Origin: Acidobacteria bacterium UBA2999
GTDB taxonomy: Bacteria > Acidobacteriota > Vicinamibacteria > Vicinamibacterales > UBA2999
Direction of reading: 5' to 3'
Assembly (NCBI GenBank): GCA_002346475.1
Contig: DDZV01000015.1
Coordinates: 47,643 to 111,642 of the forward strand
Length of the DNA stretch: 64,000 nucleotides
Positions within the stretch are counted from its first letter, which is position 1, and each line of letters starts with the position of its first letter. Below are positions 6,174 through 60,336 of this stretch, one piece after another. The translations under genes and the position numbers were made by a program. A model generated the notes under the pieces. The model worked only from the letters and a program-made list of their open reading frames with translations, was not told the origin of the DNA and searched no databases.

Positions 6174-6185
6174 GACAAAGAGTCT

Positions 6186-9608: not shown

Positions 9609-9644
9609 TACGATGATTCAGTATAGCTGGCTTATATGTAAGAC

Positions 9645-10175
9645 CTAAGCATCTTCACTCTTGGCCCAGTACTTGGTGAACTCTTCCATATAAGTCAACG
9701 TTTTGAGTGAATCCATCCGATCGAAAAAAAGAATCCCGTCAAGATGATCCGTTTCATGTTGGACCACACGTGAGGGGAAATCTGTAAGATGTAATTCCAT
9801 TGGTTTCCCATTCCTGTCTAGCCCTCGGACAGTGATTTCAAATTGTCTCGGAACCATTCCACGAATGTCAGGAATACTGAGACACCCTTCCCAACCTTCG
9901 ACCGTGGCCGAGTCGGTAGATACAATTTCTGGGTTAATAATTACAGTTGCGTTAGCTTCAGGGTCTGGCTCATCCTCTAACAGCGCAACAAATAAACGAA
10001 CGCTCTCATGGACTTGCGGAGCAGCCAATCCAACACCATGGTACTCATGCATTGTTTCGATCATGTCATCAATTAGTTGCTGTAACGCTCGGCTGTGAAT
10101 CTTCGACGACTCAATCGGTTTTGCTTGGCGTCGCAACACAGGATGACCCATACGTACGACTTTTAGTATGGACAT
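9645..10175 (-). CDS. def: peptide deformylase
   Basis: All three PDF motifs are present: 'GVGLAAPQV', 'EGCLSIPD' and 'QHETDHLDG'. Confidence 0.95.
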   Translation of the reverse strand: MSILKVVRMGHPVLRRQAKPIESSKIHSRALQQLIDDMIETMHEYHGVGLAAPQVHESVRLFVALLEDEPDPEANATVIINPEIVSTDSATVEGWEGCLSIPDIRGMVPRQFEITVRGLDRNGKPMELHLTDFPSRVVQHETDHLDGILFFDRMDSLKTLTYMEEFTKYWAKSEDA

Positions 10176-44927: not shown

Positions 44928-46481
44928 CTAAGTTTGTTTAGCAAGTGACCCACGATCGACTTTGCCAAGGTGAGTACGAGGTAGCACCTTAAGAAAAACA
45001 ATTTTTCGTGGATATTTATAGGACTCCAAACGTGTTTTTGTAAAAGCTTGCAATTCAGCCCCAAGCTGTGTAGACGGAGCGTCAGCTACGACAAAAGCCC
45101 AGGGCTTAACGAGACCAGTATCGTTAACAACACCAACCACTGCTACTTCTCGTACAGCTGGATGAGTCAACAAACAGTTCTCCAACTCTCCTGGTGCCAA
45201 CCACTTACCATTGACTTTGAGCATGCTGTCTGCTCGACCGCAATAAACATAATTTCCATCAGATCGACGGCGCAACATGTCACCAGAAATGTACCATTCA
45301 CCTTGAAAAGCCTGCATTGTTTCCTTCGCCTGCTGCCAGTACTCGATTGCACGCGATTTGCCGCACACCCAAAGCCTGCCTACTTCGCCATCAACTACTT
45401 CAGCACCCCTATCATCACAGAGCTTGATATTGAAACCTGGCACCACCTTCCCAAGTGTGCCAGGCACTACTGCGCCAGAACGGTTGCTTAAAAATATGTG
45501 CGACATCTCAGACGATCCAAGGCCGTCGAGAAGTTCTACATTGAAAGTACTCAACCATCGTTTGTGCAACTTTAGAGGCAGGGCCTCTCCGGCTGACGTC
45601 GCAAGACGGAGACACGACAAATCCTGTAGAGCGGCTTCCTCGTGCGACACCATCTGTTGAATCATATTTGGGACACTAACAAACACTGTAGGACGGTGGC
45701 GTCGGATCTCGTCAAAGATTCTTTCAGGAGTGCAACGTTCTGGAAATAACACGCAGGAAGCACCCACAGAAAATGGAAAGAAAAGGTTTGAGCCTGTTGC
45801 ATAACCAAAATACAGTTTCGGCACTGAGATCGTAATGTCCTGTTTGTTAATGTTGAGTACATTCTGACCATATAGGTGGGTTGTTATAGCAAATGATCGA
45901 TGGGCCTGCATTACACCTTTTGGTCGTCCGGTTGTGCCACCACTAAAGGACAAGAGAGCTGGGTCATCTCGAGAAGAATCAAAACAAGTAATATCACCTG
46001 TTGACATCTCTAGCTCAGACGAGAACTCAGAAGCACCAACCCCATAAAGCTTGGGCAAACGTGCACATCGGGATGTGGCAGCACGGAATAATTCAAAACG
46101 GTTGGCCGGCACGAAAGCTGCTGCTGGCTGAACATAGTCAAAAAAGTAGCTAAGCAGATCTTTTGGAGCATCTGGGTTAACTAGAACTGCTATTGAACCA
46201 AGCCGCAAGACGCCAAAAAGTGCGCCAACAAAATCAGGCGTGTCTGGTAATACAACAATCACACGTTCCTTTGGTTTGATATTGTCTCTTGCAAGGATCC
46301 GAGCGTAATTTTCAGATAATGTCTTTACCTCTGAAAAATTCAGTATGCTGGTCGCAGTTCGAATGGCTGCTCTGGCTCCATGGCCTTCGGTGATTCTCGC
46401 GTCGAGAAGGTAACTACACAGATTGAGTCGTTCGGGAAGTTCAGTTTTTAATGTAGGGGTCGATTGCTGGATCTTCATCAC
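44928..46481 (-). CDS. benzoate-CoA-ligase-family aryl-CoA ligase (2-aminobenzoate / hydroxybenzoate type)
   Basis: AMP-binding motif 'FSGGTTGRPKGV' plus the family-specific 'PKLYFGYATGSNLFFPF'. 517 aa. Confidence 0.85.
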   Translation of the reverse strand: MMKIQQSTPTLKTELPERLNLCSYLLDARITEGHGARAAIRTATSILNFSEVKTLSENYARILARDNIKPKERVIVVLPDTPDFVGALFGVLRLGSIAVLVNPDAPKDLLSYFFDYVQPAAAFVPANRFELFRAATSRCARLPKLYGVGASEFSSELEMSTGDITCFDSSRDDPALLSFSGGTTGRPKGVMQAHRSFAITTHLYGQNVLNINKQDITISVPKLYFGYATGSNLFFPFSVGASCVLFPERCTPERIFDEIRRHRPTVFVSVPNMIQQMVSHEEAALQDLSCLRLATSAGEALPLKLHKRWLSTFNVELLDGLGSSEMSHIFLSNRSGAVVPGTLGKVVPGFNIKLCDDRGAEVVDGEVGRLWVCGKSRAIEYWQQAKETMQAFQGEWYISGDMLRRRSDGNYVYCGRADSMLKVNGKWLAPGELENCLLTHPAVREVAVVGVVNDTGLVKPWAFVVADAPSTQLGAELQAFTKTRLESYKYPRKIVFLKVLPRTHLGKVDRGSLAKQT

Positions 46482-46569
46482 ATTCTCCGAACTATATCCG
46501 TGTGCTACACGAAGGGTATCGTGACAGACTTAGCAAGTGCTCAAGTAGCTTAAACTCGAATAGCAAATT

Positions 46570-47382
46570 ATGTCAGTCTTTACAGAACCAACCCCTGATT
46601 TGCTCCGAGGCCGCACAGCCGTTGTTACGGGCGGGGGTCGTGGAATTGGTGCTGCGGTAGCAAATCGGCTCGCAACCGCGGGCGCAGTAGTCCTTGTTTC
46701 ATCAAAAACAGCAGCCCATGCTAAAAAGACAGCAGCCCGTCTCCGCGCAGCTGGACATACTGCACATGCAACTCCCTGCGATGTCTCAAAACACGAGGAT
46801 GTTGAAGCACTCCAGACAACCGCAACCTCCTTACTGGGGAAGGTTGATGTTTTAGTAAACAATGCTGGCGTGGCATTTTCAGCACCCTTCCTTCAAACTG
46901 ACTTTGATGATTTTTCGAAAACCATGTCAGTCAATACGACTGGCACATTTCTTTGCCTTAAAACCTTTCTCCCAGAGATGCTCAAAACTGGTTGGGGACG
47001 AGTAATTAATATCGCATCCATAGCAGGGCTCTCTGCAGGTCCTTATATATCTGCATATGCGACTTCAAAACACGCCGTTGTAGGTCTGACCAAAGCTGTA
47101 GCAACTGAAGTTGTCTTAACGGGTGTAACAGTTAACGCGCTCTGTCCTGGATACGTTAAAACAGACATGACCAAAAGAGCTATCAAGCACATTATGCACA
47201 CCACTGGACTTACAGAACCGGAGGCACTCAATGCGATGCTGAAAACTGCAACGCAAGACCGGCTGGTTGAGCCGGAAGAAGTAGCGGATGCCGTAGTTTT
47301 TCTCTGTAGAGAAGATTCAAAGGATATTAACGGTTCGACACTGGTTATTGACGGAGGAGTAGGTGGACGCAAGTATGCTTAA
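46570..47382 (+). CDS. SDR-family dehydrogenase (3-hydroxyacyl-CoA-dehydrogenase-like)
   Basis: Motifs 'VTGGGRGIGAAVA', 'NNAG' and 'YATSKHAVVGLT'. Confidence 0.85.
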   Translation: MSVFTEPTPDLLRGRTAVVTGGGRGIGAAVANRLATAGAVVLVSSKTAAHAKKTAARLRAAGHTAHATPCDVSKHEDVEALQTTATSLLGKVDVLVNNAGVAFSAPFLQTDFDDFSKTMSVNTTGTFLCLKTFLPEMLKTGWGRVINIASIAGLSAGPYISAYATSKHAVVGLTKAVATEVVLTGVTVNALCPGYVKTDMTKRAIKHIMHTTGLTEPEALNAMLKTATQDRLVEPEEVADAVVFLCREDSKDINGSTLVIDGGVGGRKYA

Positions 47383-47421
47383 TGTTATAAAACCAGCATT
47401 GTTTAGTATGGCAACAGTTGC

Positions 47422-48222
47422 ATGATCAAACCAACTTCCTTCTTGCTTGAACACAACCCCGAGTCTGGCATAGCAATAATCACCCTCAACAGACCCGAGC
47501 GTCTTAATGCGCTTACGTTCGAGGTATATACAGAATTACGCGATACATTCCGTTCACTTGAAACAGCTGCACATATTCGCACCATTATCATCACTGGAAC
47601 TGGAAAAGCCTTTTGCTCTGGTGGAGATGTCCACGAGATCATTGGAGATCTTGTGAACAGTGATGCGAAAGAACTCTTAGAATTTAACCAACTCACCTGT
47701 GATCTTGTGCGTGCAATTTTTGAGTACCCACATCCAGTTATTGGTGCTCTTAATGGGACTACCGCGGGTGCAGGTGCAGTGATTGCAACCGCCTGCGACA
47801 TTAGGATTGCTGTACCCTCAGCGCGTATTGCATTTCTCTTTACGAAAGTTGGTCTGTCTGGTGCAGACATGGGTGCAGCCTGGCTCCTTCCGCGTCTTGT
47901 TGGGCTTGGTCGGGCCACAGAGTTACTGCTAACTGGAGACTTTATTAGTGCAGGTGAAGCCTACCGCATTGGTCTTTACAATCGCCTTGTAGCTAATGAC
48001 GAAAACGTGGTCGATGCAGCTAGCAGCTTGGCCACAGCCCTCACAAAAGCTCCCACCACGGCATTGCGTGAAACGAAAAAGGCCTTGCACCGAGAATTGT
48101 CTGTGGATTTTTCGACTGCACTTGATCAAGAAGCAAAGCTTCAGGCCTTGTTAATGAAACACCCAGATTTTCGGGAAGCTTACAACGCTTTTGTGACTAA
48201 ACGCCCTCCGAGGTTCTCGTGA
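47422..48222 (+). CDS. enoyl-CoA hydratase/isomerase family protein
   Basis: Motifs 'ITLNRPERLNAL', 'GKAFCSGGDV' and 'ALNGTTAGAGA'. Confidence 0.88.
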   Translation: MIKPTSFLLEHNPESGIAIITLNRPERLNALTFEVYTELRDTFRSLETAAHIRTIIITGTGKAFCSGGDVHEIIGDLVNSDAKELLEFNQLTCDLVRAIFEYPHPVIGALNGTTAGAGAVIATACDIRIAVPSARIAFLFTKVGLSGADMGAAWLLPRLVGLGRATELLLTGDFISAGEAYRIGLYNRLVANDENVVDAASSLATALTKAPTTALRETKKALHRELSVDFSTALDQEAKLQALLMKHPDFREAYNAFVTKRPPRFS

Positions 48223-49409
48223 AGCGTCCTGGTATTGACCGGCTGTCGAGTATCGAACCGGTGGCAGCCTTCCTCGAACCGTCTCACTCGGAACTAGCAA
48301 AACAGGTTGGATCATTCTGTAAACACGAGTTATTAAATGAAACTGAACCACAATCAGACAAAGAGGCGCGAACCGTCGCACGCAAGTGGCTAAAACTTGT
48401 CGGTGGCAAAGGCGTGCTTAGCCCACTAGCCTTAGAAGATCTGCGTGGGTTCTGTCTAACACGTGAAGCAATTGCCTCCTATAGCCCACTCGTTGATGCC
48501 GTCGTGGCCATTCAGGCCCTAGTCGCTACATCATTACAACTTGCTGGATCTAAAAAGCAGCAAGCATTGTGGCTGGATGGAATCGTTACAGGACAGATCA
48601 TGGCAGCCTTTGCAATGACCGAACCGGAAGCAGGTTCTGACGTGGCTGCTATCAGCACGACCGCGACTAAAGACACTAACGGTTGGGTGCTTAATGGGCA
48701 GAAACACTTGATTTCAAATGCCGGCATCGCAGATCTCTACTTAGTGTTTGCCGCCACATCGCTAAAGGCTGGTAGCCGTGGACTCAGTGCCTTTCTAGTA
48801 CCGAGTAATACGCAAGGACTTGTCTACACGGGGACACAGATTGCTGCTGCTGGACACCCGCTTGGACAGATCAGCCTCGACGATTGTTCCGTGCCCTCTG
48901 ATGCACTCTTAGGATCTCTGAATGGCGGTTTTAAACTTGGCATGATGACTCTTGACCGGCTTCGCCCTTCCGTTGGTGCGGCCGCATGTGGCATGGCCTC
49001 CAGGGCTCTTGTCGAAAGCTTGCAACACGTAACTTCGAGACGCCAGTTTGGTGAACCCCTTGAGAGATTTCAGCTTATTCGAGAGAAGATTGGACGCATG
49101 TCTACGCTCCTCGAAGCAGCACGTTTGCTCGTTTACCGAGCGGCATGGTGTCATGATCAGGGGAAGCGCATTACTCTCGAATCAGCAATGGCTAAGAGTT
49201 TCTCTACAGAAGCAGCGCAATCAATCATTGATGAAGGTCTACAAATTGCTGGTGGCTTAGGGGTAGTTGTTGGTCACCCGCTTGAACGTCTGTATCGGGC
49301 AGTCCGAGCGTTACGGATCTACGAAGGCACAACAGAGATTCAGCGCCTGATTGTTGCAGGGGAACTCTTAGGAAGCCAGCCGTTGGGAAACCGGGACAAA
49401 CAATCTTAA
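48219..49409 (+). CDS. acyl-CoA dehydrogenase
   Basis: Motifs 'AMTEPEAGSDV' and 'IYEGTTEIQRL'. The start overlaps the upstream gene by 4 nt. Confidence 0.88.
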   Translation: MKRPGIDRLSSIEPVAAFLEPSHSELAKQVGSFCKHELLNETEPQSDKEARTVARKWLKLVGGKGVLSPLALEDLRGFCLTREAIASYSPLVDAVVAIQALVATSLQLAGSKKQQALWLDGIVTGQIMAAFAMTEPEAGSDVAAISTTATKDTNGWVLNGQKHLISNAGIADLYLVFAATSLKAGSRGLSAFLVPSNTQGLVYTGTQIAAAGHPLGQISLDDCSVPSDALLGSLNGGFKLGMMTLDRLRPSVGAAACGMASRALVESLQHVTSRRQFGEPLERFQLIREKIGRMSTLLEAARLLVYRAAWCHDQGKRITLESAMAKSFSTEAAQSIIDEGLQIAGGLGVVVGHPLERLYRAVRALRIYEGTTEIQRLIVAGELLGSQPLGNRDKQS

Positions 49410-51688
49410 TGAAAATTACTTGTGTCGGCGGGGGCCCAGCCGGACTGTACTTTAGCCTCCTTATGAAAAAGGCGAGGCCTGCCTACGAGGTCACACTGCT
49501 TGAGCGGAACAAATTAGAAGAAACTTTTAGTGCGGGTGTAGTGCTTTCGGATGCCACGATAAATTCTATTGCTACTGTAGACCCAGAAATTGCTCTGGCC
49601 CTTAGCCAACATGGCGTTCATTGGAACGACATTGAAGTGCACTACAACGGCAATTACACATCCTCCACTGGACATGGTTTCCTAGGTATTAGACGAGATC
49701 GCCTTATAAATATCCTCCGATCACAGGCACAAGCACAAGGGGTAAATATTTGTTTCGAACACGAAGAAGCAAGTCTCGCTATTGGGAAAAAAGCTGACCT
49801 TGTTGTTGCTGCTGACGGTGCAAATAGCAGTATCCGATCACGCCTCGCCACAAAGATTACGACGACCATTCACAAAGGTTCGAATCGTTTTATGTGGCTA
49901 GAAACCGACAAGGTTTTTTCGGCATTCACCTTCTGCTTCCGAGAAAACGAGCACGGTCTTTGGTGCATTCATGCTTATCAGTACGCCTCTGATCGCTCAA
50001 CCATCATTGTTGAGTGCAATGAAGCAACCTGGCTATCAAGTGGAATGGAACGTGCTACTGAAGCGGAAATGAAAACCTATCTTGAACAACTGTTCACCCA
50101 GGAATTGTCGGGACACAAACTGATGACAACGTTTGGCCCTTGGCAACAGTTTTCCACAATCTGCACGACACCTTGGTCATCAGATCGATTTGTCCTCCTT
50201 GGAGACGCAGCACACACAACGCACTTCTCTATTGGTTCAGGAACAAGCATGGCTATGGATGATGCTCTCGTACTCTGTGAGGCACTCTCCTCACACGCAG
50301 AAGTGCCCGAAGCATTCAAACAGTACGAGAAGATCAGACGGCCACAGATTGAGAGTTTGCAACGATCTGCCCAAGCATCTATGGAATGGTTCGAACATGC
50401 TTCGCATTACAGAGGGCTCGATCCAGTGTTGTTCAGTTTTTCATTGCTCACACGTTCGATGCGAATCACTCATGAACATTTACGCACCAGAGACCCTAAG
50501 TTTCTTGCTCAGGTTGATACAGCCGTATTTGAGAATGCAGAGCATCAAGTTAAAAAGCCTCTCGATCGCACTTGTCTGCCACCTCCGATGTTCACACCAT
50601 TCCGGTTGCGCGATCTCGTCATCCCAAATCGGGTCGTCGTATCACCTATGTGCCAATACGTTGCCAAAGATGGCACTGTAGGGGATTGGCACCTAGTACA
50701 TCTGGGAAGCCGTGCACTGGGAGGAGCAGGCTTACTTATAGCTGAGATGACAAACGTCAATCCAGATGCGCGTATTTCACCTAACTGTGCTGGGTTATAC
50801 AAGGACGATCACTTGGCTGCGTGGAAGCGTGTTGTCGAGTTTGTCCATCATGAAACACCTGCGAAAATTGGGATTCAACTTGGCCATGCTGGCCGTAAAG
50901 GTGCAACAAAACCTCCATGGGAAGGGAACCATGAACCTCTTGAAGAGGATAGTTGGTCAATCCTCTCGGCCTCCCCACTTCCATACTTACCTGGCCACAG
51001 CAAAATTCCACAAGAAATGACACGTGGCGACATGGATCAAGTAGTTACTGATTTTGTCAAAGCTACCAAGCTGGCTATCCTCGCTGCATTTGATCTTCTT
51101 GAAATCCATATGGCGCACGGATACTTACTCGCATCGTTTATCTCACCATTGACAAACAAGCGGACAGATGAATACGGAGGCTCATTAGAAAATAGGATGC
51201 GGTTTCCTCTTGAGGTCTTCGATGCTTGTCGTGAAGTTTGGCCACCACATCAACCAATGAGTGTCAGAATTAGTGCCGTTGATTGGGCGCCAGGTGGTAT
51301 GAACATTGCGGACGCCGTTAAAGTAGCTGCGCTATTAAAAGCACACAACTGTGACATCGTAGACGTCTCTACTGGACAGACTGTACCAGAACAACAACCA
51401 AACTATGGTCGCTTGTTTCAAACACCATTTGCCGATCGTATTCGCCGAGAAACCAATATTGCCACCATGGCTGTTGGCAACATTTCCTCTTACATGGATG
51501 TCAATACAATCATTGCAGCAGGACGGGCTGACTTATGTCTCTTGGCACGTGCACACCTGTTCGACCCCTACTGGACTAGGCATGCTGCTTGGATGCTTGA
51601 CTATCCTCTACCTTGGCCCAATCCCTATAAAGCCATGGAACGTTATAACCCGCGACTCGAATTTCAGTTTACAGATAAGAAAGAGTAG
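49409..51688 (+). CDS. bifunctional aryl-CoA monooxygenase/reductase (2-aminobenzoyl-CoA monooxygenase-reductase / salicylyl-CoA 5-hydroxylase type)
   Basis: The N-terminal half is an FAD aromatic hydroxylase ('ITCVGGGPAGLY', 'GDAAHTTHFSIGSGT'). The C-terminal half is an Old-Yellow-Enzyme-like domain ('HMAHGYLLASFISPLTNKRTDEYGGSLENRMRF'). 759 aa. The start overlaps the ACAD stop by 1 nt. Confidence 0.8.
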   Translation: MKITCVGGGPAGLYFSLLMKKARPAYEVTLLERNKLEETFSAGVVLSDATINSIATVDPEIALALSQHGVHWNDIEVHYNGNYTSSTGHGFLGIRRDRLINILRSQAQAQGVNICFEHEEASLAIGKKADLVVAADGANSSIRSRLATKITTTIHKGSNRFMWLETDKVFSAFTFCFRENEHGLWCIHAYQYASDRSTIIVECNEATWLSSGMERATEAEMKTYLEQLFTQELSGHKLMTTFGPWQQFSTICTTPWSSDRFVLLGDAAHTTHFSIGSGTSMAMDDALVLCEALSSHAEVPEAFKQYEKIRRPQIESLQRSAQASMEWFEHASHYRGLDPVLFSFSLLTRSMRITHEHLRTRDPKFLAQVDTAVFENAEHQVKKPLDRTCLPPPMFTPFRLRDLVIPNRVVVSPMCQYVAKDGTVGDWHLVHLGSRALGGAGLLIAEMTNVNPDARISPNCAGLYKDDHLAAWKRVVEFVHHETPAKIGIQLGHAGRKGATKPPWEGNHEPLEEDSWSILSASPLPYLPGHSKIPQEMTRGDMDQVVTDFVKATKLAILAAFDLLEIHMAHGYLLASFISPLTNKRTDEYGGSLENRMRFPLEVFDACREVWPPHQPMSVRISAVDWAPGGMNIADAVKVAALLKAHNCDIVDVSTGQTVPEQQPNYGRLFQTPFADRIRRETNIATMAVGNISSYMDVNTIIAAGRADLCLLARAHLFDPYWTRHAAWMLDYPLPWPNPYKAMERYNPRLEFQFTDKKE

Positions 51689-51709
51689 CGAGGTGGGTGC
51701 CGTTACACT

Positions 51710-52090
51710 CTATGTTTTGCTGCGTAATCCATCAATACTCAATGATCCAGCACCGCGCACGGCAAGGTAAAGAAACGCAAAACAGAATAACACTGCAGAT
51801 TCTCCATTATTCTGTACCGGCCAAAATGCTTGTGGTAGGTGTGCAATAAAGTAAGCAGCAGCCATCTGTCCACTGGCAATGAACGCTGCCAACCGAGTGA
51901 ACAGTCCAACAATAATTAGTATGCCTCCGATAAGCTCCACCATGGCAGCAACCCCCAACAACGAACCAAGAGGCACAACCGTTCCATCAAACATACCGAA
52001 TAATTTCTGTAATCCGTGCACGAGAAATAGAAACCCAAAAACAATTCGCACAATTGCGTAAATCGTAGAAGCATAACGTTCTGGAATCAT
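51710..52090 (-). CDS. DoxX-family membrane protein
   Basis: 126 aa, 4 TM, with 'RIVFGFLFLVHGLQKLFG'. AGGAG lies upstream of the ATG. Confidence 0.8.
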   Translation of the reverse strand: MIPERYASTIYAIVRIVFGFLFLVHGLQKLFGMFDGTVVPLGSLLGVAAMVELIGGILIIVGLFTRLAAFIASGQMAAAYFIAHLPQAFWPVQNNGESAVLFCFAFLYLAVRGAGSLSIDGLRSKT

Positions 52091-52117
52091 TGTTTATCTC
52101 CTGTGCATAAAGTATAG

Positions 52118-52134
52118 AAACAATAATATTGTTT
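52118..52134. promoter_or_regulatory. 7-3-7 inverted repeat AAACAAT-aat-ATTGTTT in the DoxX / BMC-operon divergent intergenic region
   Basis: Perfect 7-bp arms. A TATAAT hexamer sits at 52163-68, 8 nt before the 52177 ATG. The context is AT-rich, so a chance match is plausible. Confidence 0.3.
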
Positions 52135-52176
52135 AATCTCCATGTACAAAGAACAGAAGCCCTATAATGTAAGGCT

Positions 52177-52533
52177 ATGCCACTTATTACAAGGGTTAGC
52201 GGAACTCTCCTGATTTTGACCGGACTACTTGGTTATATCGTAACCGGCACAAGTAGTCTGACGGCTTTCATCCCAGCAATTTTTGGTTTAATTCTCGTCC
52301 TACTTGGAATCTGGGCCAATGCTGAAGAAACACGCAAACACGCTATGCACGCGGCCGCGGCCGTGGGACTCATCAGTTTAATCGTAGGACTTGCAAGCCT
52401 ACTGCTGTCATGGCTGTACCCGCGGTCATTGGCATCGGTACTGGCTCAAGTGGCAATGATAATAATTGCAGCCACTTTCCTTGGGTTATGTATAAGATCT
52501 TTCATTAACGCCCGTCGGACAAATCCTCGCTAG
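52177..52533 (+). CDS. small 4-TM membrane protein, unknown family
   Basis: 118-aa ORF with four hydrophobic helices. It ends 14 nt upstream of the BMC-H gene. Confidence 0.6.
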   Translation: MPLITRVSGTLLILTGLLGYIVTGTSSLTAFIPAIFGLILVLLGIWANAEETRKHAMHAAAAVGLISLIVGLASLLLSWLYPRSLASVLAQVAMIIIAATFLGLCIRSFINARRTNPR

Positions 52534-52547
52534 TAGACGACTGACTT

Positions 52548-52865
52548 ATGAACGCTAAACGTAAGGATGCGAACGTGACAGCCAAAGAGAATCTCGGAGA
52601 TGCCCTGGGACTTATCGAAACCCGTGGACTCATTGGTATGATTGAAGCAACTGATGCAATGCTTAAAACTGCAAACGTCGTGCTTGTAAGCTGGGAAAAA
52701 GTCGATGCTGGACTCGTCACTGCATTAGTCCGTGGGGATGTAGGGTCGGTGCAGGCGGCAACTGATGCCGGAGCAGCTGCGGCTCGTCGTGTGGGCGAGC
52801 TCATTGGTGTACACGTTATTCCTCGGCCTGCCGACGACTGCGAGAGAGTTTTACCGATCCGCTAG
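52548..52865 (+). CDS. bacterial microcompartment shell protein, BMC-H (PduA/EutM/CcmK-type, Pfam BMC domain)
   Basis: '[76 protein letters not shown]' is collinear with PduA as I recall it ('[61 protein letters not shown]...VHVIPRP'). There is an 18-aa Lys-rich N-terminal extension. Confidence 0.9.
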
Positions 52866-53307
52866 ATCTCCGTCGTCGCTCTCGTACGGTTACAGGTCGA
52901 AGTGACAACTCTTCTCCATCTACAAGAAGTGCCTGTGTTGGCTTTTCAACATTGAACAACCCATTGTCTGTACGAACGTATAACTGATCTCCTTTGATTA
53001 GCAATGCCGGCGTTTCACCTTCGCCAATTACTTCGTACAACCTCACACCAAATTCCTCGCGCAACACGCTTAGAAGGTTTCTGATACGAGGAACAGAAAA
53101 CCCTCGACGCCGTAAGTCGCCTAGAATCTGAAGCTCAAGAACATCAATTGTGGTGTAACGTCGTTCAGTAAATCCACCTGCAGGTGTTCGTTTAGGAGCA
53201 ATCGCCGGCGCGAAGAGGCGTCTCGCATCCCACCATTGCAACTGTCTCGCAGATAGCCCTGTTAGGGTTGAAACTTCTCGAGAGCTATAAAACTTCTTCA
53301 GCCTCAT
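52816..53307 (-). CDS. MerR-family transcriptional regulator
   Basis: N-terminal HTH '[21 protein letters not shown]'. ATGA overlap with the upstream PCD gene. The basic C-terminal tail overlaps the BMC-H 3' end by 50 nt. Confidence 0.75.
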
Positions 53308-53594
53308 AATAATTCTTGGGCTTTGCGGTCGGCCATACGTGCGCCCTCAATGTCCTTAAGCGTAACGCCACCTTGACTATGTGTAGAGTATGAAAGGGTA
53401 ACTCGCTTGTAATTTATGCTGATGTCAGGATGGTGATCTGCTTGTTCTGCCTCTGGCACAAGATGCCCTACAAACGTAACTGCCTCAGGGAACCCAGCAA
53501 ATGTAAATTGTTTGCAGATGGCGTTTCCACTTAATGACCATCCCTGAAGCGATTGGAGATGTTGTTCAATGTCTGCATGCGACAGGATCACCAT
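53304..53594 (-). CDS. pterin-4a-carbinolamine dehydratase (PCD/DCoH)
   Basis: Full canonical motif 'EAEQADHHPDISINYKRVTLSYSTHSQGGVTLKD' ([DE]x3HHPx5[YW]x9Hx8D). ATG 53594 is preceded by GGAGGAGG; the track start is 53645. Confidence 0.85.
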   Translation of the reverse strand: MVILSHADIEQHLQSLQGWSLSGNAICKQFTFAGFPEAVTFVGHLVPEAEQADHHPDISINYKRVTLSYSTHSQGGVTLKDIEGARMADRKAQELL

Positions 53595-53634
53595 GACGAT
53601 TCCTCCTCCAAGATCACAACAACCAAGATGGGTG

Positions 53635-54735
53635 TTATAGCCCAAAGCGACTAGGAGTTGTAAGCATTAGTTCAGGGGCCTTAGCATTCTCTAGTAGAAA
53701 ATCTGCAACTATCTTGGCTGTAAGTGGTGCTAATAGGACGCCATTGCGATAGTGGCCTGTAGCATAAATCACATTTGGCCACTCGCACGAAGGACCTACT
53801 AGTGGTAATTCGTCAGGAGATACTGGACGAAGTCCCACACGCACATCACGCAACCGTGCATCTTTGATTGTCGGCAAGACCGCTTGCGCCACTTGAAGAA
53901 GGTGTTGCACAGCAGCTGCTGTAGATCTCTCGTCAAAACCAACATCTTCGACTGTGGCACCAACGAGTATGGTGCCGTCTTGTAGTGGCACAAGATAGCA
54001 ATCAGGACTCCAAATAACGTGTGCTGCCGATGGAGTGTTGCAAACAAGATTCAGGAGTTGTCCGCGAATAGGCTTAACGGGTGCAGGCATCGCCTGCTTA
54101 ACAGCAACACGAGCAGACCAACTCCCTGTTGCTAACACCAAAGCATCTACTTCAATTGTGCTACCTTCTGAAAGATGAACTTGGACACGGTTATGTCTCT
54201 GTTGCAGTGCTTCAACCTTCACCGTTGACTTCACTGACACGCCCTTCTGTCGTGCAGCAACTTCCAAAGCGTGGACTAGAGCACGAGACTGTACGTACCC
54301 ATGATTCGGAATTAGGAGCGCTCCTGTTGCTGTAGGTGCAAGTCCAGGCTCAAGTACACGTGCTGCAGCTGGTTCAAGATATTGATGCTCAACATGGGTG
54401 GCATTATATTTTTCAGCAGTGGTACGAAGGTGATGAGCTTGTTCTTCGTTAAGAGCCACCTCTAATGTGCCTATGCGACGATAATCGATAGGTAGCCCAG
54501 AATCTCTACTCACACGTTCAATAAATGCGTCATACAGACCTAGACTTTGCACTCCAAGTTGTAAAAACTCTGGTGAGTGCCCTTCAATATATGGAGCAAG
54601 TATGCCTGCAGCGGCTTGTGAAGCGCCTTCACCGGCACGACGTGCATCTAACATTTGCACCTCCGCACCACGCGCAACAAGCTCATAAGCAACCGCACAG
54701 CCAACCACGCCGGCTCCAACAACTAGTACTTGCAC
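53635..54735 (-). CDS. FAD-dependent glycine oxidase ThiO-like / DAO-family oxidoreductase
   Basis: Motifs 'VLVVGAGVVGCAVAYEL', 'RGQLL' and 'TGHYRNGVLLAP'. Confidence 0.75.
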   Translation of the reverse strand: MQVLVVGAGVVGCAVAYELVARGAEVQMLDARRAGEGASQAAAGILAPYIEGHSPEFLQLGVQSLGLYDAFIERVSRDSGLPIDYRRIGTLEVALNEEQAHHLRTTAEKYNATHVEHQYLEPAAARVLEPGLAPTATGALLIPNHGYVQSRALVHALEVAARQKGVSVKSTVKVEALQQRHNRVQVHLSEGSTIEVDALVLATGSWSARVAVKQAMPAPVKPIRGQLLNLVCNTPSAAHVIWSPDCYLVPLQDGTILVGATVEDVGFDERSTAAAVQHLLQVAQAVLPTIKDARLRDVRVGLRPVSPDELPLVGPSCEWPNVIYATGHYRNGVLLAPLTAKIVADFLLENAKAPELMLTTPSRFGL

Positions 54736-54843
54736 GAATGGCAGTTTACCCTCTTGAGAACTCTCACGTTAGAGAGCTGGCTCAGTTACTATTAAGATTG
54801 CACAATTGACATAAAGCGATCTAATAGTGGTATTGCAAAAAGT

Positions 54844-55404
54844 ATGCATCGAATCTGTCTTTTTTGTGGATCAAGCACAGGTACAAACCCTGCTTACACC
54901 CTTGCGGCTCAAGTAATTGGAAAAGAGCTTGCTAGGCGGAAGATCGATCTTGTATTTGGAGGTGGTGCCATTGGGCTCATGGGTGTTGTAGCCAATGCTG
55001 TGCTTGCGGGTGGTGGCCACGCGATTGGTGTTATTCCGAAATCACTCGAGGCACGCGACATTGCGCACCAGGGGCTACCAGATCTAAGAATAGTCAACTC
55101 AATGCATGAGCGAAAAGCTCTAATGAGTTCACTGGCTGATGCCTTTATTGCTCTACCCGGTGGATTTGGCACTTTTGAAGAATTTTGCGAGGCCCTCACG
55201 TGGACACAGCTAGGCCTACATAACAAACGTTGTGGTCTGCTTAATGTGGAAGGATATTACGACCCACTGCTCGCCTTATTTGATCGGGCAGTCAAAGATG
55301 ATTTTATTACGGTGAATTACCGTGCCATGGTCATCGCACACGCCGACCCGCTTCTGCTGCTAGACAAACTCCTACAGCCAGAGGGCACACCGATAAAACC
55401 GTAG
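54844..55404 (+). CDS. LOG-family (TIGR00730) nucleotide phosphoribohydrolase
   Basis: Motifs 'VFGGGAIGLMG' and 'ALPGGFGTFEE'. Confidence 0.88.
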   Translation: MHRICLFCGSSTGTNPAYTLAAQVIGKELARRKIDLVFGGGAIGLMGVVANAVLAGGGHAIGVIPKSLEARDIAHQGLPDLRIVNSMHERKALMSSLADAFIALPGGFGTFEEFCEALTWTQLGLHNKRCGLLNVEGYYDPLLALFDRAVKDDFITVNYRAMVIAHADPLLLLDKLLQPEGTPIKP

Positions 55405-55429
55405 TACCGTGGAGACAGCTCAAGAACAC

Positions 55430-55882
55430 TTATACCTCAAGGCGCCACTGCTCCTCCCAGCTATCACCGATGGGATGCAGGGCGACCATACCATTCCGCG
55501 GAAAGTTAATTAGCATTTCCTCTGTTGGCACTTCAACTCCAAGCATAAGCCTTAGTAACCGTTCCAAGTAAGGCATATGGCCCACAGCCATAAGTTCTCG
55601 GATATCTCCTTGAAACTGATCGCGTATCCATACAGGCGAGTCTGCTGGTTGGAGACCACGCTTAGCAGTCATCGTGGCAAATGGGTTGCAGGCTTTCCAA
55701 AACGCTTCAGCAGTCTGCCGCGCCCGGAGCTTTCCACTGTGCCAGATATACAAGGGGCGTACTCCTCGCTGGGTCGCTTGGAGCGCAAGGTGGGCAGCTG
55801 CGGCACGCCCACGTGCCGATAATGGACGCATTGGATCAACCTCGGTTATAACTGCTTCAGCGTGATGAACAAGATAAATCAA
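55430..55882 (-). CDS. SixA-like histidine-phosphatase-superfamily protein (HH instead of RH in the catalytic motif)
   Basis: 'IYLVHHAEA' at the N-terminus and 'VGHMP' late in the protein. I chose TTG 55882, which gives the family-typical ~150 aa. The track GTG start at 55987 would add 35 non-conserved aa and cover the metK leader. Confidence 0.6.
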   Translation of the reverse strand: MIYLVHHAEAVITEVDPMRPLSARGRAAAAHLALQATQRGVRPLYIWHSGKLRARQTAEAFWKACNPFATMTAKRGLQPADSPVWIRDQFQGDIRELMAVGHMPYLERLLRLMLGVEVPTEEMLINFPRNGMVALHPIGDSWEEQWRLEV

Positions 55883-55909
55883 GTGAACTCTCAGGCTCTT
55901 TAGTGGTAG

Positions 55910-55918
55910 TGCTATACT
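55910..55918 (+). promoter_or_regulatory. extended -10-like element TGcTATACT upstream of the metK leader
   Basis: Sequence match only. I saw no convincing -35. Confidence 0.3.
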
Positions 55919-56000
55919 AAATGGGTTCAGAGTGTGCGGCGATTTCACCGACTTGATGGGCCGCTCGTCCAGATTGTAACCTGGCACTCACACTATCTAA

Positions 56001-56022
56001 GTCGCGAAAGTTCGCCCGCGAC
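56001..56022 (+). promoter_or_regulatory. alternative (antiterminator-like) hairpin sharing bases with the metK leader terminator
   Basis: GTCGCG (56001-06) pairs with CGCGAC (56017-22) around a 10-nt loop. Its 3' arm is the 5' arm of the terminator stem, so the two structures are mutually exclusive. Confidence 0.5.
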
Positions 56023-56046
56023 AAAAAGTCAGCGGGCTTTTTTGTT
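56014..56046 (+). terminator. intrinsic-terminator-like hairpin inside the metK 5' leader (candidate attenuator)
   Basis: GCCCGCGAC (56014-22) pairs with GTC-a-GCGGGC (56028-37) around an AAAAA loop, followed by TTTTTTGTT (56038-46). The upstream neighbour is on the opposite strand, so there is no same-strand gene to terminate. Confidence 0.6.
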
Positions 56047-56060
56047 GTCTAAGGAGTTTT

Positions 56061-57197
56061 ATGTCGCGTTTCACGTTCACGTCCGAGTCAGTGTCGGAAG
56101 GACATCCAGATAAAGTCTGTGATTACGTTTCCGATTCCATCCTAGATGCCTGTTTTGAACAAGACCCACACAGCCGTGTCGCGTGTGAAACTCTCTGCAA
56201 AAGCGACACTGTGGTACTGGCAGGTGAAATCACGACAAATGCAAATCTAAACTACGAACAAATTGTACGACAGGCTATTAAAGATATTGGATATACCGAC
56301 CCCAATGAAACATTCTGTGATACGACTCTTAAATTGATTTCAATTATTACCCAACAGTCATCACAGATTTCACAAGGTGTTACAGCAACAACAAGTCAAA
56401 GTGGAGACCAAGGTGCTGGTGACCAAGGCATTATGTTTGGCTATGCCACTGATGAATCTCCAGAAATGATGCCTTTACCCATTCTCTTGGCACACCGTCT
56501 GACGAAGGGGCTAACGGACGATCGCAAGGCTGGCAATGTTGATTGGCTCCTTCCAGACAATAAGTCACAGGTTTCCGTCGCTTACGAAAACAACGAGCCG
56601 AAATTTGTTTCAGCGGTTGTCGTTTCAACACAACACACCACTGCCGTTAAACAAAAACAAATCGCGGAATATGTCAGAGAAGATCTCGGTCCACGCGTGC
56701 TTGGCCAGTGGTGGAATCAGGACTTAGCGCTTCTGGTGAACCCAACAGGTGATTTTAGCCATGGTGGGCCCGCTGCTGACGCTGGCGTGACTGGACGCAA
56801 GATCATCGTCGACACCTATGGTGGCTGGGGCCGTCATGGCGGGGGTGCCTTTAGTGGTAAGGATCCATCAAAGGTCGATCGTAGCAGTGCCTACTTCTGT
56901 CGATTTGTTGCCCGGCAAGTTGTTGCTGCTGGTCTTGCGCGAAGGGTTGAAATCCAACTAGGCTATGCCATCGGAATGGCTAAACCTGTCTCGGTAAAGA
57001 TAGATACGTTTGGAACCGGTGATAGTCGTGCAGCTGAAGAGTTTGTGGAAAACACCTTTGATTTTCGACCACGGGCTATCATTGAACAGCTCGATCTGCT
57101 GCGACCCATTTACCGCAACACCACGAATTACGGTCACTTTGGTCGACCTGAACTACCCTGGGAAACAGCGGAGAAGGCCACGGCGACAACTCGATAA
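56061..57197 (+). CDS. metK: S-adenosylmethionine synthetase
   Basis: Motifs 'SEGHPDKVCD', 'GAGDQGIMFGYA' and 'GGGAFSGKDPSKVDRS'. AAGGAG lies 4 nt upstream of the ATG. Confidence 0.97.
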   Translation: MSRFTFTSESVSEGHPDKVCDYVSDSILDACFEQDPHSRVACETLCKSDTVVLAGEITTNANLNYEQIVRQAIKDIGYTDPNETFCDTTLKLISIITQQSSQISQGVTATTSQSGDQGAGDQGIMFGYATDESPEMMPLPILLAHRLTKGLTDDRKAGNVDWLLPDNKSQVSVAYENNEPKFVSAVVVSTQHTTAVKQKQIAEYVREDLGPRVLGQWWNQDLALLVNPTGDFSHGGPAADAGVTGRKIIVDTYGGWGRHGGGAFSGKDPSKVDRSSAYFCRFVARQVVAAGLARRVEIQLGYAIGMAKPVSVKIDTFGTGDSRAAEEFVENTFDFRPRAIIEQLDLLRPIYRNTTNYGHFGRPELPWETAEKATATTR

Positions 57198-57213: not shown

Positions 57214-60200
57214 TCACCGAAAGCACGGAAGTTGTAACGGCTCGTACGTGCTGGTCGGAGTGCGACGACTGTCAACCGAGAGCCAAATAATCAGTCCCTC
57301 TCGGTGTAAGCGATCCTGAAGAATTGGATACGAATCAACAAATCGGTTCGCGGCATAGGCATGGACATCTTCATACGCTTCCAAGTACTGCAGGGGTCTT
57401 GATCCACCAACGCCGACGAGAATCGGCACCGGAGATTGTTCAACTAAGGCTATCGTGCGCTGCTGCAACTCCGCAGAGTGTTGAAACCCGTTACCCCAAG
57501 CCATGTGTCGCACAACGCGTCGCTCAGCATAGTACGGTGTTGTGTACATATCTGTCATTGCCCAGATCCGATCTTCCGGCGCAGTGCACTCGTAGAAGTA
57601 CCGCAACAATGCGCGATCACCTCTGCTCTCCTTCGGCGCATATCCATCAATCGGTGGCGATATTGTCCACCGGTTGAATTTTTCCGCAGATACGTCCCAC
57701 ATCCTCGTAACTCCTCCGAAAACCCCGATCCTGTTCAAGAATGAGGAATTGAAAATCCTGGTGTGGCTAATCGTAGCACCTATTGAGATCACGACTACGA
57801 CGGTGACAACGGCAAGGAGGACTGTTTGCCGAAGAATGCGACCGACCGTACGCGTCTGCAACGCTTGAGTCACTTGACGCCACGAAACCCAGCTCTGGAA
57901 AACCTGTGGAAGGCACCACGCACTGAAAACCATTGCGATGTTCACGTGGTCTTGGAAAGCCCCCATTTTTCGCATGAGCGCATAGTTAGTAATTACCGTC
58001 ATCAGGCCCAGCGCGAGCATCTTCGCACCCTCGTGCGACATTCCGTCGATTTGCTGGCCACGCACTGCTTTCATTATCAGTAATCCGATGACGAGAAAGG
58101 GAAGCAGCATTGTGACGTAGTACAACCACGCCCCGGCATTCTGGGCATGGATGATTTTTGGTAACACAGCGAGTCGCAGTATCGAAAAATCACGTTGCCA
58201 TGACATAAGCCACGAATCACTTTCGAGTTTTACATCCTCGAGTAAGGGAGTACCTGGTGTCGTCGTCCAGACAGATTCGATGCCACTACTTCCACTCACA
58301 TACCTGTCACTAACCAGGGCCTTAAGACGAGCTGAACTGGCATCGACCATGGTGTACGCATGCATACCTGCTGGCGCATTGATCGTGACGAGACCATGTT
58401 TCGTTTCGAGTGCTTGTCGCTGCTCGGTAGTCACAACATCGTGCGCCCATAGAACGTTTAACCGCGCGCCTATAAAAGCATCTTGATCTTCCAGCCATAC
58501 ACTGTCCTCAATTTCGCCTACTACTTGGAAAGTGCCTTCGACTTCGGTTGGGATAATACGGCCTATGGTTTCTACTCGTTCATCGTGTACTAACCGCGTT
58601 ACATTCTCGACCGAGGTATTTGTGATGTCATAGTCAAATGCCAAATGGTTATTTTCATTCTCGTTGAATTTTCTATTGACGAGTTGGTACTCTGCCTCTG
58701 CAGCAAAACGCAATTCCTTAGAAAGATCGTTGACCCAAACAATCCCAATCCGTGGGCCTAATACGATGGCCGCCGTGTCTTCGACTCTTGTGTCTTGTAC
58801 CAACTGCGTGACATTCGCACGAGAGGGATCCGCGAGCTCGTAGAAAAATGAACGGCCATCATCACCATTCGGGACTTTGTTGACGAGTTGGTACTGTGCC
58901 TCCGCAGCGACGGATGCCTCTGCGGATACCTGTTCAGCCCAGCGAAGCCCAATCCGTGGACCTGCTTTGGGAATCTCGATCAGGCCGATCGCCTCTGGAC
59001 GTATCACGGGACGTGTACCTTGCGTTCGTAAGATTGCACGGTCGGTCATCAGCGCAGTGATATTGTCTTGCGAACGATCTTGAACCTCATATTGCACCGG
59101 TTCCCCAGGCAGGGTAATGGCTGAAACATTCGACTCGTTAGAAATTGGTACGAGTTGGTATTGGGCTTCGAGACGGGTACGTTCTGAGTCGGTAACCCAC
59201 TCCGCCCAGAGAACCGTCAGCGATTCCCCGGCAGCCCCGGCTTCCATTTGGTACGCGCGCCGAAATGACCCGTAGACACCATCTACGATATTCACCTTTG
59301 AATCAGCTACTAGCGCTTTGAGGTTAACGTCTGACGGGTCAAGTAGTTGGTAACTGTGCCAACCGCCGGGCTCTCGAAGAGGCAGATCGTCAAGCCCTCT
59401 AGGCTGAGTATTCCCCTGTAGGCCATATTGTGTTTCCAGTTGTGTCCGTAAACGGGGAGATACCTCGGGTGCCCATTCGATGGCAATCCCGGCGGGGAAT
59501 TGAGGCATTATGCCCACCCAAAACGAAGGCCGAGACTCATCGATCACGAGCGGTACGGATTGGCGTCCTTCCTGATCGAGTTGACGTGCGAAATCAATGC
59601 GCTCAGTGAAATAAGCAACGATCCCTTCATTGATTTGGACTAGGACAAAGAACGGCAAGAATATGATGATTCCAACACCAACGAATCGCCCTACGGAGTA
59701 GGCGATTCTGCGGTACCCGTCGTGCCAATGTGCAATGAGAATTGCTATAGAAGCACCGAGGCCTACGTACAAACCGTGATCATGTCGAAAACCGAACGCC
59801 ACGGCCACCGCCACCGCAAGCCCGAACATGCGCAGGAAAGTTGGCTTCTCAATGTATCGCCACGTAAGCCAGCCACCGAGAGGGTATACAAATATTTTTG
59901 GATAACTGTAGACCTTGGTTTCGATCATCAGCACCATAACAACGATTAGAAGTACGAAAGCTATGAGACGTGAGCGGCTGGCTTCCCAAGCCATGTCGTA
60001 GCTGAGGGTAAGAGCAACGGTAGTGAACGTGACTGCAAGGAATATTTCGCCAATGACGCGGTAGCCCACAATCTTCTGTGCTATTGCTGACATAAACCAA
60101 AAGAGTGGATCGCCCATGTCCACAAAGCCGTCGAGCCATGCATCGCCTTTTAGAAACGCTGCAGCTTTCCCGAGAGCTAAGTGATCGTCACCCCCAAGAT

Positions 60201-60336
60201 CTTTAACAATTAACCATTGCAGTATCCACACGAACACAAAGATCGTCGTAAGTGTCAGTGCCTGATACCTGCGGGAAGGAACGGATACCATTGTTATCTG
60301 TGCTCTACGCTTTATGAAGATCTGGCTTGTGCTCAT
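57214..60336 (-). CDS. 1040-aa polytopic membrane protein, GT-C-glycosyltransferase-like, with an inserted five-repeat soluble region
   Basis: About 7 TM in residues 1-250, with 'GGDD' in the first extracytoplasmic loop. Five tandem repeats span residues 283-690, followed by ~4 more TM (730-860) and a ~180-aa C-terminal soluble domain. An alternative ATG at 60291 would remove the 32-nt overlap with the cupin gene. The GT-C assignment is an inference from topology and gene context only. Confidence 0.55.
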   Translation of the reverse strand: MSTSQIFIKRRAQITMVSVPSRRYQALTLTTIFVFVWILQWLIVKDLGGDDHLALGKAAAFLKGDAWLDGFVDMGDPLFWFMSAIAQKIVGYRVIGEIFLAVTFTTVALTLSYDMAWEASRSRLIAFVLLIVVMVLMIETKVYSYPKIFVYPLGGWLTWRYIEKPTFLRMFGLAVAVAVAFGFRHDHGLYVGLGASIAILIAHWHDGYRRIAYSVGRFVGVGIIIFLPFFVLVQINEGIVAYFTERIDFARQLDQEGRQSVPLVIDESRPSFWVGIMPQFPAGIAIEWAPEVSPRLRTQLETQYGLQGNTQPRGLDDLPLREPGGWHSYQLLDPSDVNLKALVADSKVNIVDGVYGSFRRAYQMEAGAAGESLTVLWAEWVTDSERTRLEAQYQLVPISNESNVSAITLPGEPVQYEVQDRSQDNITALMTDRAILRTQGTRPVIRPEAIGLIEIPKAGPRIGLRWAEQVSAEASVAAEAQYQLVNKVPNGDDGRSFFYELADPSRANVTQLVQDTRVEDTAAIVLGPRIGIVWVNDLSKELRFAAEAEYQLVNRKFNENENNHLAFDYDITNTSVENVTRLVHDERVETIGRIIPTEVEGTFQVVGEIEDSVWLEDQDAFIGARLNVLWAHDVVTTEQRQALETKHGLVTINAPAGMHAYTMVDASSARLKALVSDRYVSGSSGIESVWTTTPGTPLLEDVKLESDSWLMSWQRDFSILRLAVLPKIIHAQNAGAWLYYVTMLLPFLVIGLLIMKAVRGQQIDGMSHEGAKMLALGLMTVITNYALMRKMGAFQDHVNIAMVFSAWCLPQVFQSWVSWRQVTQALQTRTVGRILRQTVLLAVVTVVVVISIGATISHTRIFNSSFLNRIGVFGGVTRMWDVSAEKFNRWTISPPIDGYAPKESRGDRALLRYFYECTAPEDRIWAMTDMYTTPYYAERRVVRHMAWGNGFQHSAELQQRTIALVEQSPVPILVGVGGSRPLQYLEAYEDVHAYAANRFVDSYPILQDRLHREGLIIWLSVDSRRTPTSTYEPLQLPCFR
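58267..59490 (-). repeat. intragenic tandem array of five 68-96-codon repeats in the 1040-aa membrane protein gene
   Basis: Protein repeats begin GIAIEWAPEV (283), SLTVLWAEWV (372), RIGLRWAEQV (461), RIGIVWVNDL (529) and RLNVLWAHDV (625). DNA echo: 'ttgacgagttggtac' occurs at 58676 and 58880, and 'cccaatccgtgg' at 58744 and 58948 (204-nt period). Confidence 0.85.

Follow-up and report, generated by a model that had tools for sequence, protein, structure and literature searches.

The shell gene and its surroundings

The window, meaning the whole stretch of 64,000 nucleotides that was analyzed, carries a gene for a BMC-H shell protein on the forward strand at 52548..52865. A preliminary description made from the letters alone had taken its 105-aa product for a PduA/EutM-type hexamer shell protein, and two comparisons bear this out. 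The product matches PF00936 at residues 19-94 with 96.5 bits against a Pfam cut-off of 24.5, and its residues 18-103 align with residues 12-97 of PduA (PDB 3ngk) over 86 residues without a gap (E 7e-33). Having one copy of PF00936 above the gathering score, it is a single-domain BMC-H protein, and the gap-free, end-to-end alignment with PduA gives a non-permuted order of secondary-structure elements. Scores fell below the NCBIfam equivalog cut-offs for EutM (116.6 versus 133), CcmO (99.2 versus 270) and CsoS1 (86.2 versus 166). An identical protein is present on marine metagenome contigs of up to 434 kb. AF2 modeled the monomer with low confidence (pLDDT 62), and pore and tail were therefore judged from sequence alone; the protein is predicted to form hexamers.

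Selection on the 85-codon core of the gene was estimated among relatives only, because pairs that include the window sequence are saturated by the GC shift. The median dN/dS over 2308 pairs was 0.07, which marks the gene as functional rather than relict. Judged by these codon comparisons, the clade to which it belongs is under strong purifying selection.

An N-terminal extension of 18 residues, rich in K, D and E (52548..52601, forward strand), stands ahead of the domain, as the preliminary description had it. About 100 close BMC-H homologues have tails of similar length (14-17 aa) that loosely follow K-x-K-D-x-x-V-x-[DE]-[KQR]-x-[DE]-[IV]-GDALG, and this recurrence supports the ATG start. An alternative GTG start at codon 10, with AAGGA 7 nt upstream, was rejected, since homologues conserve the nine residues that it would remove. 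Extensions of more distant Vicinamibacterales BMC-H proteins are shorter and of other sequence. In the low-confidence AF2 model the extension has pLDDT values below 50.

Upstream on the same strand lies a gene for a 118-aa membrane protein of four helices (52177..52533, forward strand; AF2 and family alignment). Its stop codon, TAG at 52531-52533, is separated from the ATG at 52548 by a spacer of 14 nt (52534..52547). ORF coordinates and the AF2 model thus agree with what had been claimed of this neighbour. The model has four long helices (2-22, 28-46, 53-76 and 85-115) at a mean pLDDT of 94.5, and three motifs are conserved in the family: T-A-L-I-P, R-K-H-A-M-H-A-A-A and S-F-I-x-A-R-R. No curated family in Pfam or NCBIfam was matched above cut-off (DUF7139, 18.2 bits versus 30), and a Foldseek search of the PDB gave no structural relative better than E 0.3. 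The family is small (61 clusters). On the other side of this gene, and divergent from it, is a gene for a DoxX-family membrane protein (51710..52090, reverse strand; PF07681, 54 bits).

Three reverse-strand genes follow the shell gene. The nearest, convergent with it, encodes a MerR-family regulator (52816..53307; PF13411). The next encodes a 4a-hydroxytetrahydrobiopterin (pterin-4a-carbinolamine) dehydratase, PCD (53304..53645; PF01329, 87.6 bits; NF002017, 99 versus 80), for which gene callers choose a later start that gives 96 aa; the protein carries the HHP...Y...H...D pattern, which we take to be the canonical catalytic motif. The third encodes a DAO-family protein, the glycine oxidase ThiO of thiamin biosynthesis (53635..54735; TIGR02352, 310 versus a cut-off of 250.8). 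Pfam and the NCBIfam ThiO score thus uphold the bracketing of the pair by DoxX and a MerR/PCD/ThiO-like operon. The PCD was considered as a carboxysome-type acRAF-like factor and rejected, given that it has this pattern, that it reaches the PCD equivalog score and that no RuBisCO is present. A search of 51000-56200 against Rfam found no known RNA family. Promoter and terminator scans gave hits no more frequent than in shuffled sequence.

The wider setting has topoisomerase genes upstream and ThiO, MetK and the his operon downstream. The genes surveyed across the window are for housekeeping or common metabolism, among them the two topoisomerase subunit genes, panBCD, thiI, 2-oxoacid dehydrogenase E2 and E3-like genes, metK and an aromatic acyl-CoA cluster. 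From its gene content, the region reads as stable core chromosome and not as a BMC island. The topoisomerase B-subunit gene (39169-41073, reverse strand) was used to place the host: its named best matches are all from Vicinamibacterales, at 81-82% identity. Vicinamibacteria correspond to subdivision 6 of the Acidobacteriota.

Isolation of the gene and the motifs of its clade

According to the preliminary description, the window lacks BMC-P, aldehyde dehydrogenase, PTAC and RuBisCO genes, and this holds. A Pfam survey of selected likely genes, extended over 42.5-62.8 kb by precomputed Pfam hits on called genes, found no PF03319 (BMC-P), second PF00936, PF00171, PF06130 (PTAC), PF00596 (aldolase) or RuBisCO match in the window. 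A BMC-P HMM was built from PDB-checked sequences (the EutN sequence is 100% identical to 2hd3). It had no match in the six-frame translation of the window and none in 1.76 Mb of sequence including the window, where the best E was 0.55. As a positive control, the same HMM recovered 80/80 control loci, and a BMC-H HMM recovered 75/80.

The control loci came from a metagenome scan with the BMC-P profile and are canonical BMC-P/BMC-H loci, most of them with a BMC-type aldehyde dehydrogenase. One of them (L142), with RpiB, DeoC, BMC-H, BMC-P, aldehyde dehydrogenase and a tandem BMC protein, was read as SPU-like. An ACI architecture was not shown among these control loci. Note that the tandem 182-aa BMC proteins that top the homology list were set aside as unrelated; one of them, P0023, lies in an ordinary locus of PTAC, BMC, BMC, aldehyde dehydrogenase and aldolase.

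Contigs that extend the window by 10 kb on each side bring the source sequence covered to 84 kb, out of a contig of at least 434 kb, and no BMC gene was found in the 10 kb past either end. These contigs are from Tara Oceans marine metagenomes. On one flank are genes for a peptidase, an SDR and methyltransferases; on the other are the his operon, an MFS transporter gene and the genes of an ABC transporter (solute-binding protein, permease and ATPase).

Related loci were compared over ±10 kb. They number 83, made up of the best 80 of 177 genome loci and three syntenic contigs, L097, L098 and L099. The best 80 of 177 come from species-representative genomes, mostly labeled Acidobacteriota/Vicinamibacterales, with BMC-H identities of 67-88%. 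In all 83 loci the orthologous BMC-H gene is the sole shell gene within ±10 kb. Each of the best 80 of 177 (80/80) has exactly one ORF with a BMC domain and no BMC-P in that range, and none has a BMC-type aldehyde dehydrogenase, PTAC or class II aldolase there. A shell gene lying apart, with no BMC-P in its locus, is what a satellite gene should look like, and this was found across the 84 kb of source and the ±10 kb of 80 relatives.

At 52698..52712 (forward strand) lies the pore loop, K51-V52-D53-A54-G55. In the 3ngk alignment, PduA has K-I-G-S-G at the same position, so that the contrast between 'KVDAG' and 'KIGSG' drawn in the preliminary description proves correct. The K-V-D-A-G pore is present in 81/81 clade sequences, with V, D and A invariant. 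At the edge, P92-R93-P94-A95 (52821..52832, forward strand) replaces the usual (P/A)RPH. The position of the interface His is Ala in 66/81 clade sequences, Gly and Val being the next commonest. The edge lysine, K40, is kept within D-A-M-L-K-T-A-N (52653-52676).

A set of 207 BMC domains, taken from the 150 best representatives at 50% identity, includes 55 with a VDAG pore, and just 1 of these 55 has a PRPH edge. Most of the other domains have pores of G-x-G type, and across the whole set no edge motif is commoner than PRPH. The BMC-H domains of the 80 control loci include no VDAG pore; the motifs matched there are pores of G-G-G/G-S-G type with (P/A)RPH.

In the catalogue of Sutter et al. 2021 (PMC8217296), as far as its passages on hexamer classes go, basal BMC-H proteins, which form the bulk of the facets, are defined by KAAN and (P/A)RPH, and others are specialised. 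The window gene has K-T-A-N and P-R-P-A and departs from the basal type on both counts, and by that definition the clade counts as specialised BMC-H. The PRPA edge could reduce co-tiling with basal hexamers.

Candidate roles of the lone gene

The passages of the catalogue that deal with the ACI type (PMC8217296) confine it to Acidobacteria, for the most part those of subdivisions 4 and 6. At its main locus, genes for a class II aldolase and a hydroxyacid dehydrogenase accompany a BMC-P triplet and a basal BMC-H, and an extra BMC-H stands "by itself" on a satellite locus. A lone BMC-H is also recorded there for one FRAG-type BMC. The host of the window gene is an acidobacterium of subdivision 6, within the range given for ACI satellites. 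Given such a host, and the extra lone BMC-H that the catalogue describes, a satellite gene is the best reading. On balance we think it somewhat probable that the protein is a specialised satellite hexamer co-tiling into the shell of a distal ACI-type compartment with its main locus elsewhere in the genome. Of the two roles proposed in the preliminary description, a satellite shell gene has thus gained indirect support from the host and from the catalogued lone BMC-H, and recruitment to a membrane role has not.

The alternative with the next best claim, which we nonetheless consider unlikely, is a role independent of any microcompartment. Lone BMC-H hexamers, sheets or tubes would act by themselves, perhaps as a scaffold or some other assembly in the cytoplasm, in a marine lineage that perhaps has no BMC-P or main locus. 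The solitude of the gene in 80/80 relatives (best 80 of 177) fits such a role, as do its vertically inherited housekeeping neighbourhood, which is no mobile BMC island, and the strength of the purifying selection. The interface departs from the basal motif, with PRPA in place of PRPH. The upstream neighbour varies, with no evident operon partner: in 78 loci it is a D-Ser-dehydratase-like PLP enzyme in 35, DinB_2 in 14, DUF1501 in 7, CarboxypepD_reg in 5, and another gene or none in 17. This variation argues that the shell gene is not bound into an operon with any enzyme. Against independence, the gene retains the edge Lys and Arg required for facet tiling, and the relevant passages of the catalogue put lone acidobacterial BMC-H genes in consolidated ACI loci with BMC-P triplets elsewhere (PMC8217296).

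A broader form of the same idea makes the whole K-V-D-A-G/PRPA clade an order-wide, vertically inherited paralogue whose function needs no closed microcompartment, the marine lineage having lost, or never had, BMC-P and the main locus; we hold this to be rather more doubtful still. Note, though, that the clade is found in at least 80 species-level genomes, and that such lone BMC-H genes are recorded "occasionally" in the catalogue passages concerned. The clade may be more general than ACI satellites. If the stand-alone reading were true, the protein would be a naturally occurring BMC hexamer with its own cellular function.

A second alternative ties the shell gene to the convergent MerR, PCD and ThiO genes, through control of BMC-H by the MerR protein, through coupling at the overlapping 3' ends, or through a hexamer that acts in ThiO or PCD chemistry. 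The trio recurs on the opposite strand downstream of BMC-H, with MerR (within 4 kb) in 55/80 loci, PCD in 52/80 and ThiO in 47/80. Beyond it synteny fades, to 4/80 for LOG and 8/80 for HisPhos; all five counts refer to the best 80 of 177. The 3' ends of BMC-H and MerR overlap by 50 nt (52816-52865), and the same overlap is found in L097, L098 and L099. Nevertheless, a convergent layout makes no operon, and MerR regulators typically stand divergent from the genes they control. Where 3' ends overlap, rearrangement has scarcely any neutral DNA in which to occur, and this could alone preserve the adjacency. Insertions of 1-3.7 kb separate BMC-H from MerR in several loci. Both ThiO and PCD, at equivalog scores, are housekeeping enzymes, and the ThiO model matches residues 3-349 of 366, so that neither end is long enough to carry an encapsulation peptide as an extension. 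We regard a functional link of this kind as distinctly improbable.

The membrane role would have BMC-H act together with the four-helix protein encoded upstream. From the 14-nt spacing and shared strand, the two genes are probably co-transcribed in this lineage, and close relatives have the pair too, on several marine contigs (the clusters of BMC-H and of the membrane protein have longest-contig sizes of 434749, 142365 and 71526 bp in common). Conservation of the pair in relatives had been named beforehand as the test, and it was checked in the 83 related loci (80 genome loci and the three syntenic contigs): the adjacency is absent from all of them. Within ±10 kb of BMC-H in the best 80 of 177 genome loci, no homologue of the membrane protein was found by tblastn, and a family HMM made from 75 members had no match. 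Homologues at 36-56% identity sit in unrelated contexts, adjoining BipA and a methyltransferase, a sigma factor and a PIN-domain gene, MurB, or an FAA hydrolase; none of them has a BMC gene beside it.

Gene order in the syntenic contig L097 would account for the adjacency. Its BMC-H is 82% identical to that of the window, with 64% for DoxX, 55% for the membrane protein (150 bits against the family HMM) and 73% for MerR. The order is kynureninase, DoxX (reverse), the membrane protein (forward), GCV_T (reverse), two amine oxidases, an Aldedh fragment of 235 aa, DinB_2, BMC-H (forward), then MerR, PCD and a DAO-family gene (all reverse), with MetK and his genes farther along. The DoxX/membrane-protein pair is thus conserved, and the membrane-protein gene and BMC-H are parted by a block of 6.3 kb with five genes. 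The order in the window is that of L097 minus this block, and the spacer at 52534..52547 is the junction where L097 carries the ~6.3 kb. No orthologue of the block genes was found in the window. L098 and L099, whose BMC-H proteins are likewise 82% identical, have DinB_2, and not the membrane-protein gene, directly upstream of BMC-H.

The arrangement of membrane protein, GCV_T, amine oxidase and amine oxidase recurs in a second lineage (L091), and amine oxidase genes lie at most 10 kb upstream of BMC-H in 24/78 Vicinamibacterales loci. GC content is 46.8% in the window versus 65% in the nearest syntenic relative. We infer that the block is ancestral and was lost in the GC-poor marine lineage, rather than gained in the others. 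Loss of ~6.3 kb between the two genes would have made them neighbours forming an apparent operon. Because none of the relatives examined has the pairing, and given the order in L097, the adjacency provides no evidence of joint function. On this comparative context, which largely refutes a membrane-associated module and leaves it highly improbable, the four-helix protein is no partner of BMC-H and their adjacency is incidental. The lesson is that adjacency in a single genome can mislead: the two genes look like an operon here, and no relative examined has the pair.

A probable satellite hexamer compared with known systems

Under the satellite reading, BMC-H hexamers would be a minority among the tiles in the facets of a metabolosome encoded elsewhere, for which the Acidobacteria-specific ACI type is the candidate. 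With an Asp-Ala-Gly pore ringed by Asp53 and a PRPA edge, such tiles would have another pore charge and another edge contact. Separate transcription of the gene might then tune shell permeability, as satellite shell genes may do according to the part of the catalogue that takes up the proposal made for CcmK3/K4 (PMC8217296). Co-assembly with a distal BMC, the role in permeability and the presence of a main locus in this genome should all be considered provisional.

What the comparison does provide is a sharply defined clade of lone Vicinamibacterales BMC-H proteins, with an invariant pore Asp and a small residue, mostly Ala, in place of the interface His. Together these two replacements allow the specific hypothesis that pore selectivity is altered in the uncharacterised ACI organelle. 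Since the gene is anchored among housekeeping genes across an abundant soil and marine order, it is also a convenient marker, and one on which to test whether satellite hexamers depend on a main locus.

Lone satellite BMC-H genes of Acidobacteria are already known, and the window gene is probably one more of them. Its closest counterpart is the ACI lone BMC-H class H_marine (PMC8217296, Supplementary Data 2), which in the parts of that source bearing on it shares the subdivision 6 host and the position of a lone gene away from BMC-P and enzymes. H_marine is described there as having 'mostly standard' interface motifs; the window gene likewise keeps the edge Lys and Arg, with the His replaced. 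The text passages on H_marine give no K-V-D-A-G pore, PRPA edge or MerR-PCD-ThiO convergence such as are seen for the window gene. Assignment to this class, by host, isolation and motif description, is circumstantial.

The basal BMC-H proteins PduA and EutM (3ngk, 3mpw) have the same fold and length, and are ~65-70% identical to the window protein over 86 residues, as counted from the alignment. The D-x-x-x-K edge lysine and the PRP arginine are common to all three. They differ in the pore (G-S-G or G-G-G, against D-A-G) and at the edge (PRPH, against PRPA), and the window protein has an extra charged N-terminal tail of ~14 residues and is encoded outside a pdu or eut operon.

CcmK3 and CcmK4 of the beta-carboxysome belong to another BMC type and host and come as a pair, whereas the window BMC-H is single and has no carboxysome genes with it. 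The likeness lies in their organization: they too are paralogues of shell hexamers, encoded off the main locus and separately regulated, for which tuning of permeability has been proposed.

Genes upstream of the lone BMC-H gene and tandem-domain homologs

Among the relatives carrying a lone BMC-H gene (L003-L082), 78 loci were counted as Vicinamibacterales. At 35 of these, a gene for a PLP enzyme (PF01168 + PF14031) ends just upstream of the BMC-H gene on the same strand, as exemplified by positions 5833-9993 of locus L074. The top NCBIfam match of this enzyme was 3-hydroxy-D-aspartate aldolase BhcC, with a score far under the cut-off. Note also that a DUF1800-DUF1501 pair precedes the PLP enzyme in many loci of the set.

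In L097, the nearest syntenic relative of the window, a 235-aa PF00171 aldehyde dehydrogenase fragment (8590-9297) is encoded two genes upstream of the lone BMC-H gene. The fragment had no similarity at E 1e-8 to the BMC-type AldDh of locus L095, and is probably a remnant.

The best scores to the window BMC-H were obtained for tandem-domain BMC proteins of 182 aa (P0010-P0034; see L095/L096, 9275-13350). The locus of one of them, P0023, encodes PTAC, BMC, BMC, AldDh and class II aldolase, and is bounded at its end by integrase/recombinase and phage-like genes.

Convergent BMC-H and MerR genes and base composition

The 3' ends of the convergent BMC-H and MerR genes share 50 nt in the window (52816-52865), and the same 50-nt overlap was found in the syntenic contigs L097, L098 and L099. 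Because of this overlap, a terminator cannot fit between the two genes. The overlap may also permit antisense interference.

The marine (Tara Oceans) Vicinamibacterales lineage of the window exhibits a strong GC shift: GC content is 46.8% for the window (1-64000) versus 65% for L097, with gene order common to both and protein identity still 64-82%.

Other genes of the window

An ORF of 1040 aa at 57214-60336(-), called as 1025 aa on the source contigs, had no matches in Pfam or NCBIfam; it is flanked by metK on one side and by a sugar aminotransferase/glycosyltransferase cluster on the other. At 511 aa, the ThyX encoded at 8073-9608(-) is roughly double the normal size and contains two stretches of Thy1 domain. 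For the pterin dehydratase gene (53304-53645(-)), the longest ORF is 113 aa with a TTG start and matches Pfam from residue 21 onward; gene callers pick a later start on the source contigs, giving 96 aa.

An aromatic acyl-CoA cluster occupies 44928-51688 and comprises an AMP-binding CoA ligase on the (-) strand, an SDR, an enoyl-CoA hydratase, an acyl-CoA dehydrogenase and a 759-aa FAD-monooxygenase/OYE fusion. Against salicylyl-CoA 5-hydroxylase (NF006101), the fusion scored 1030.8 bits, slightly below the cut-off of 1078.
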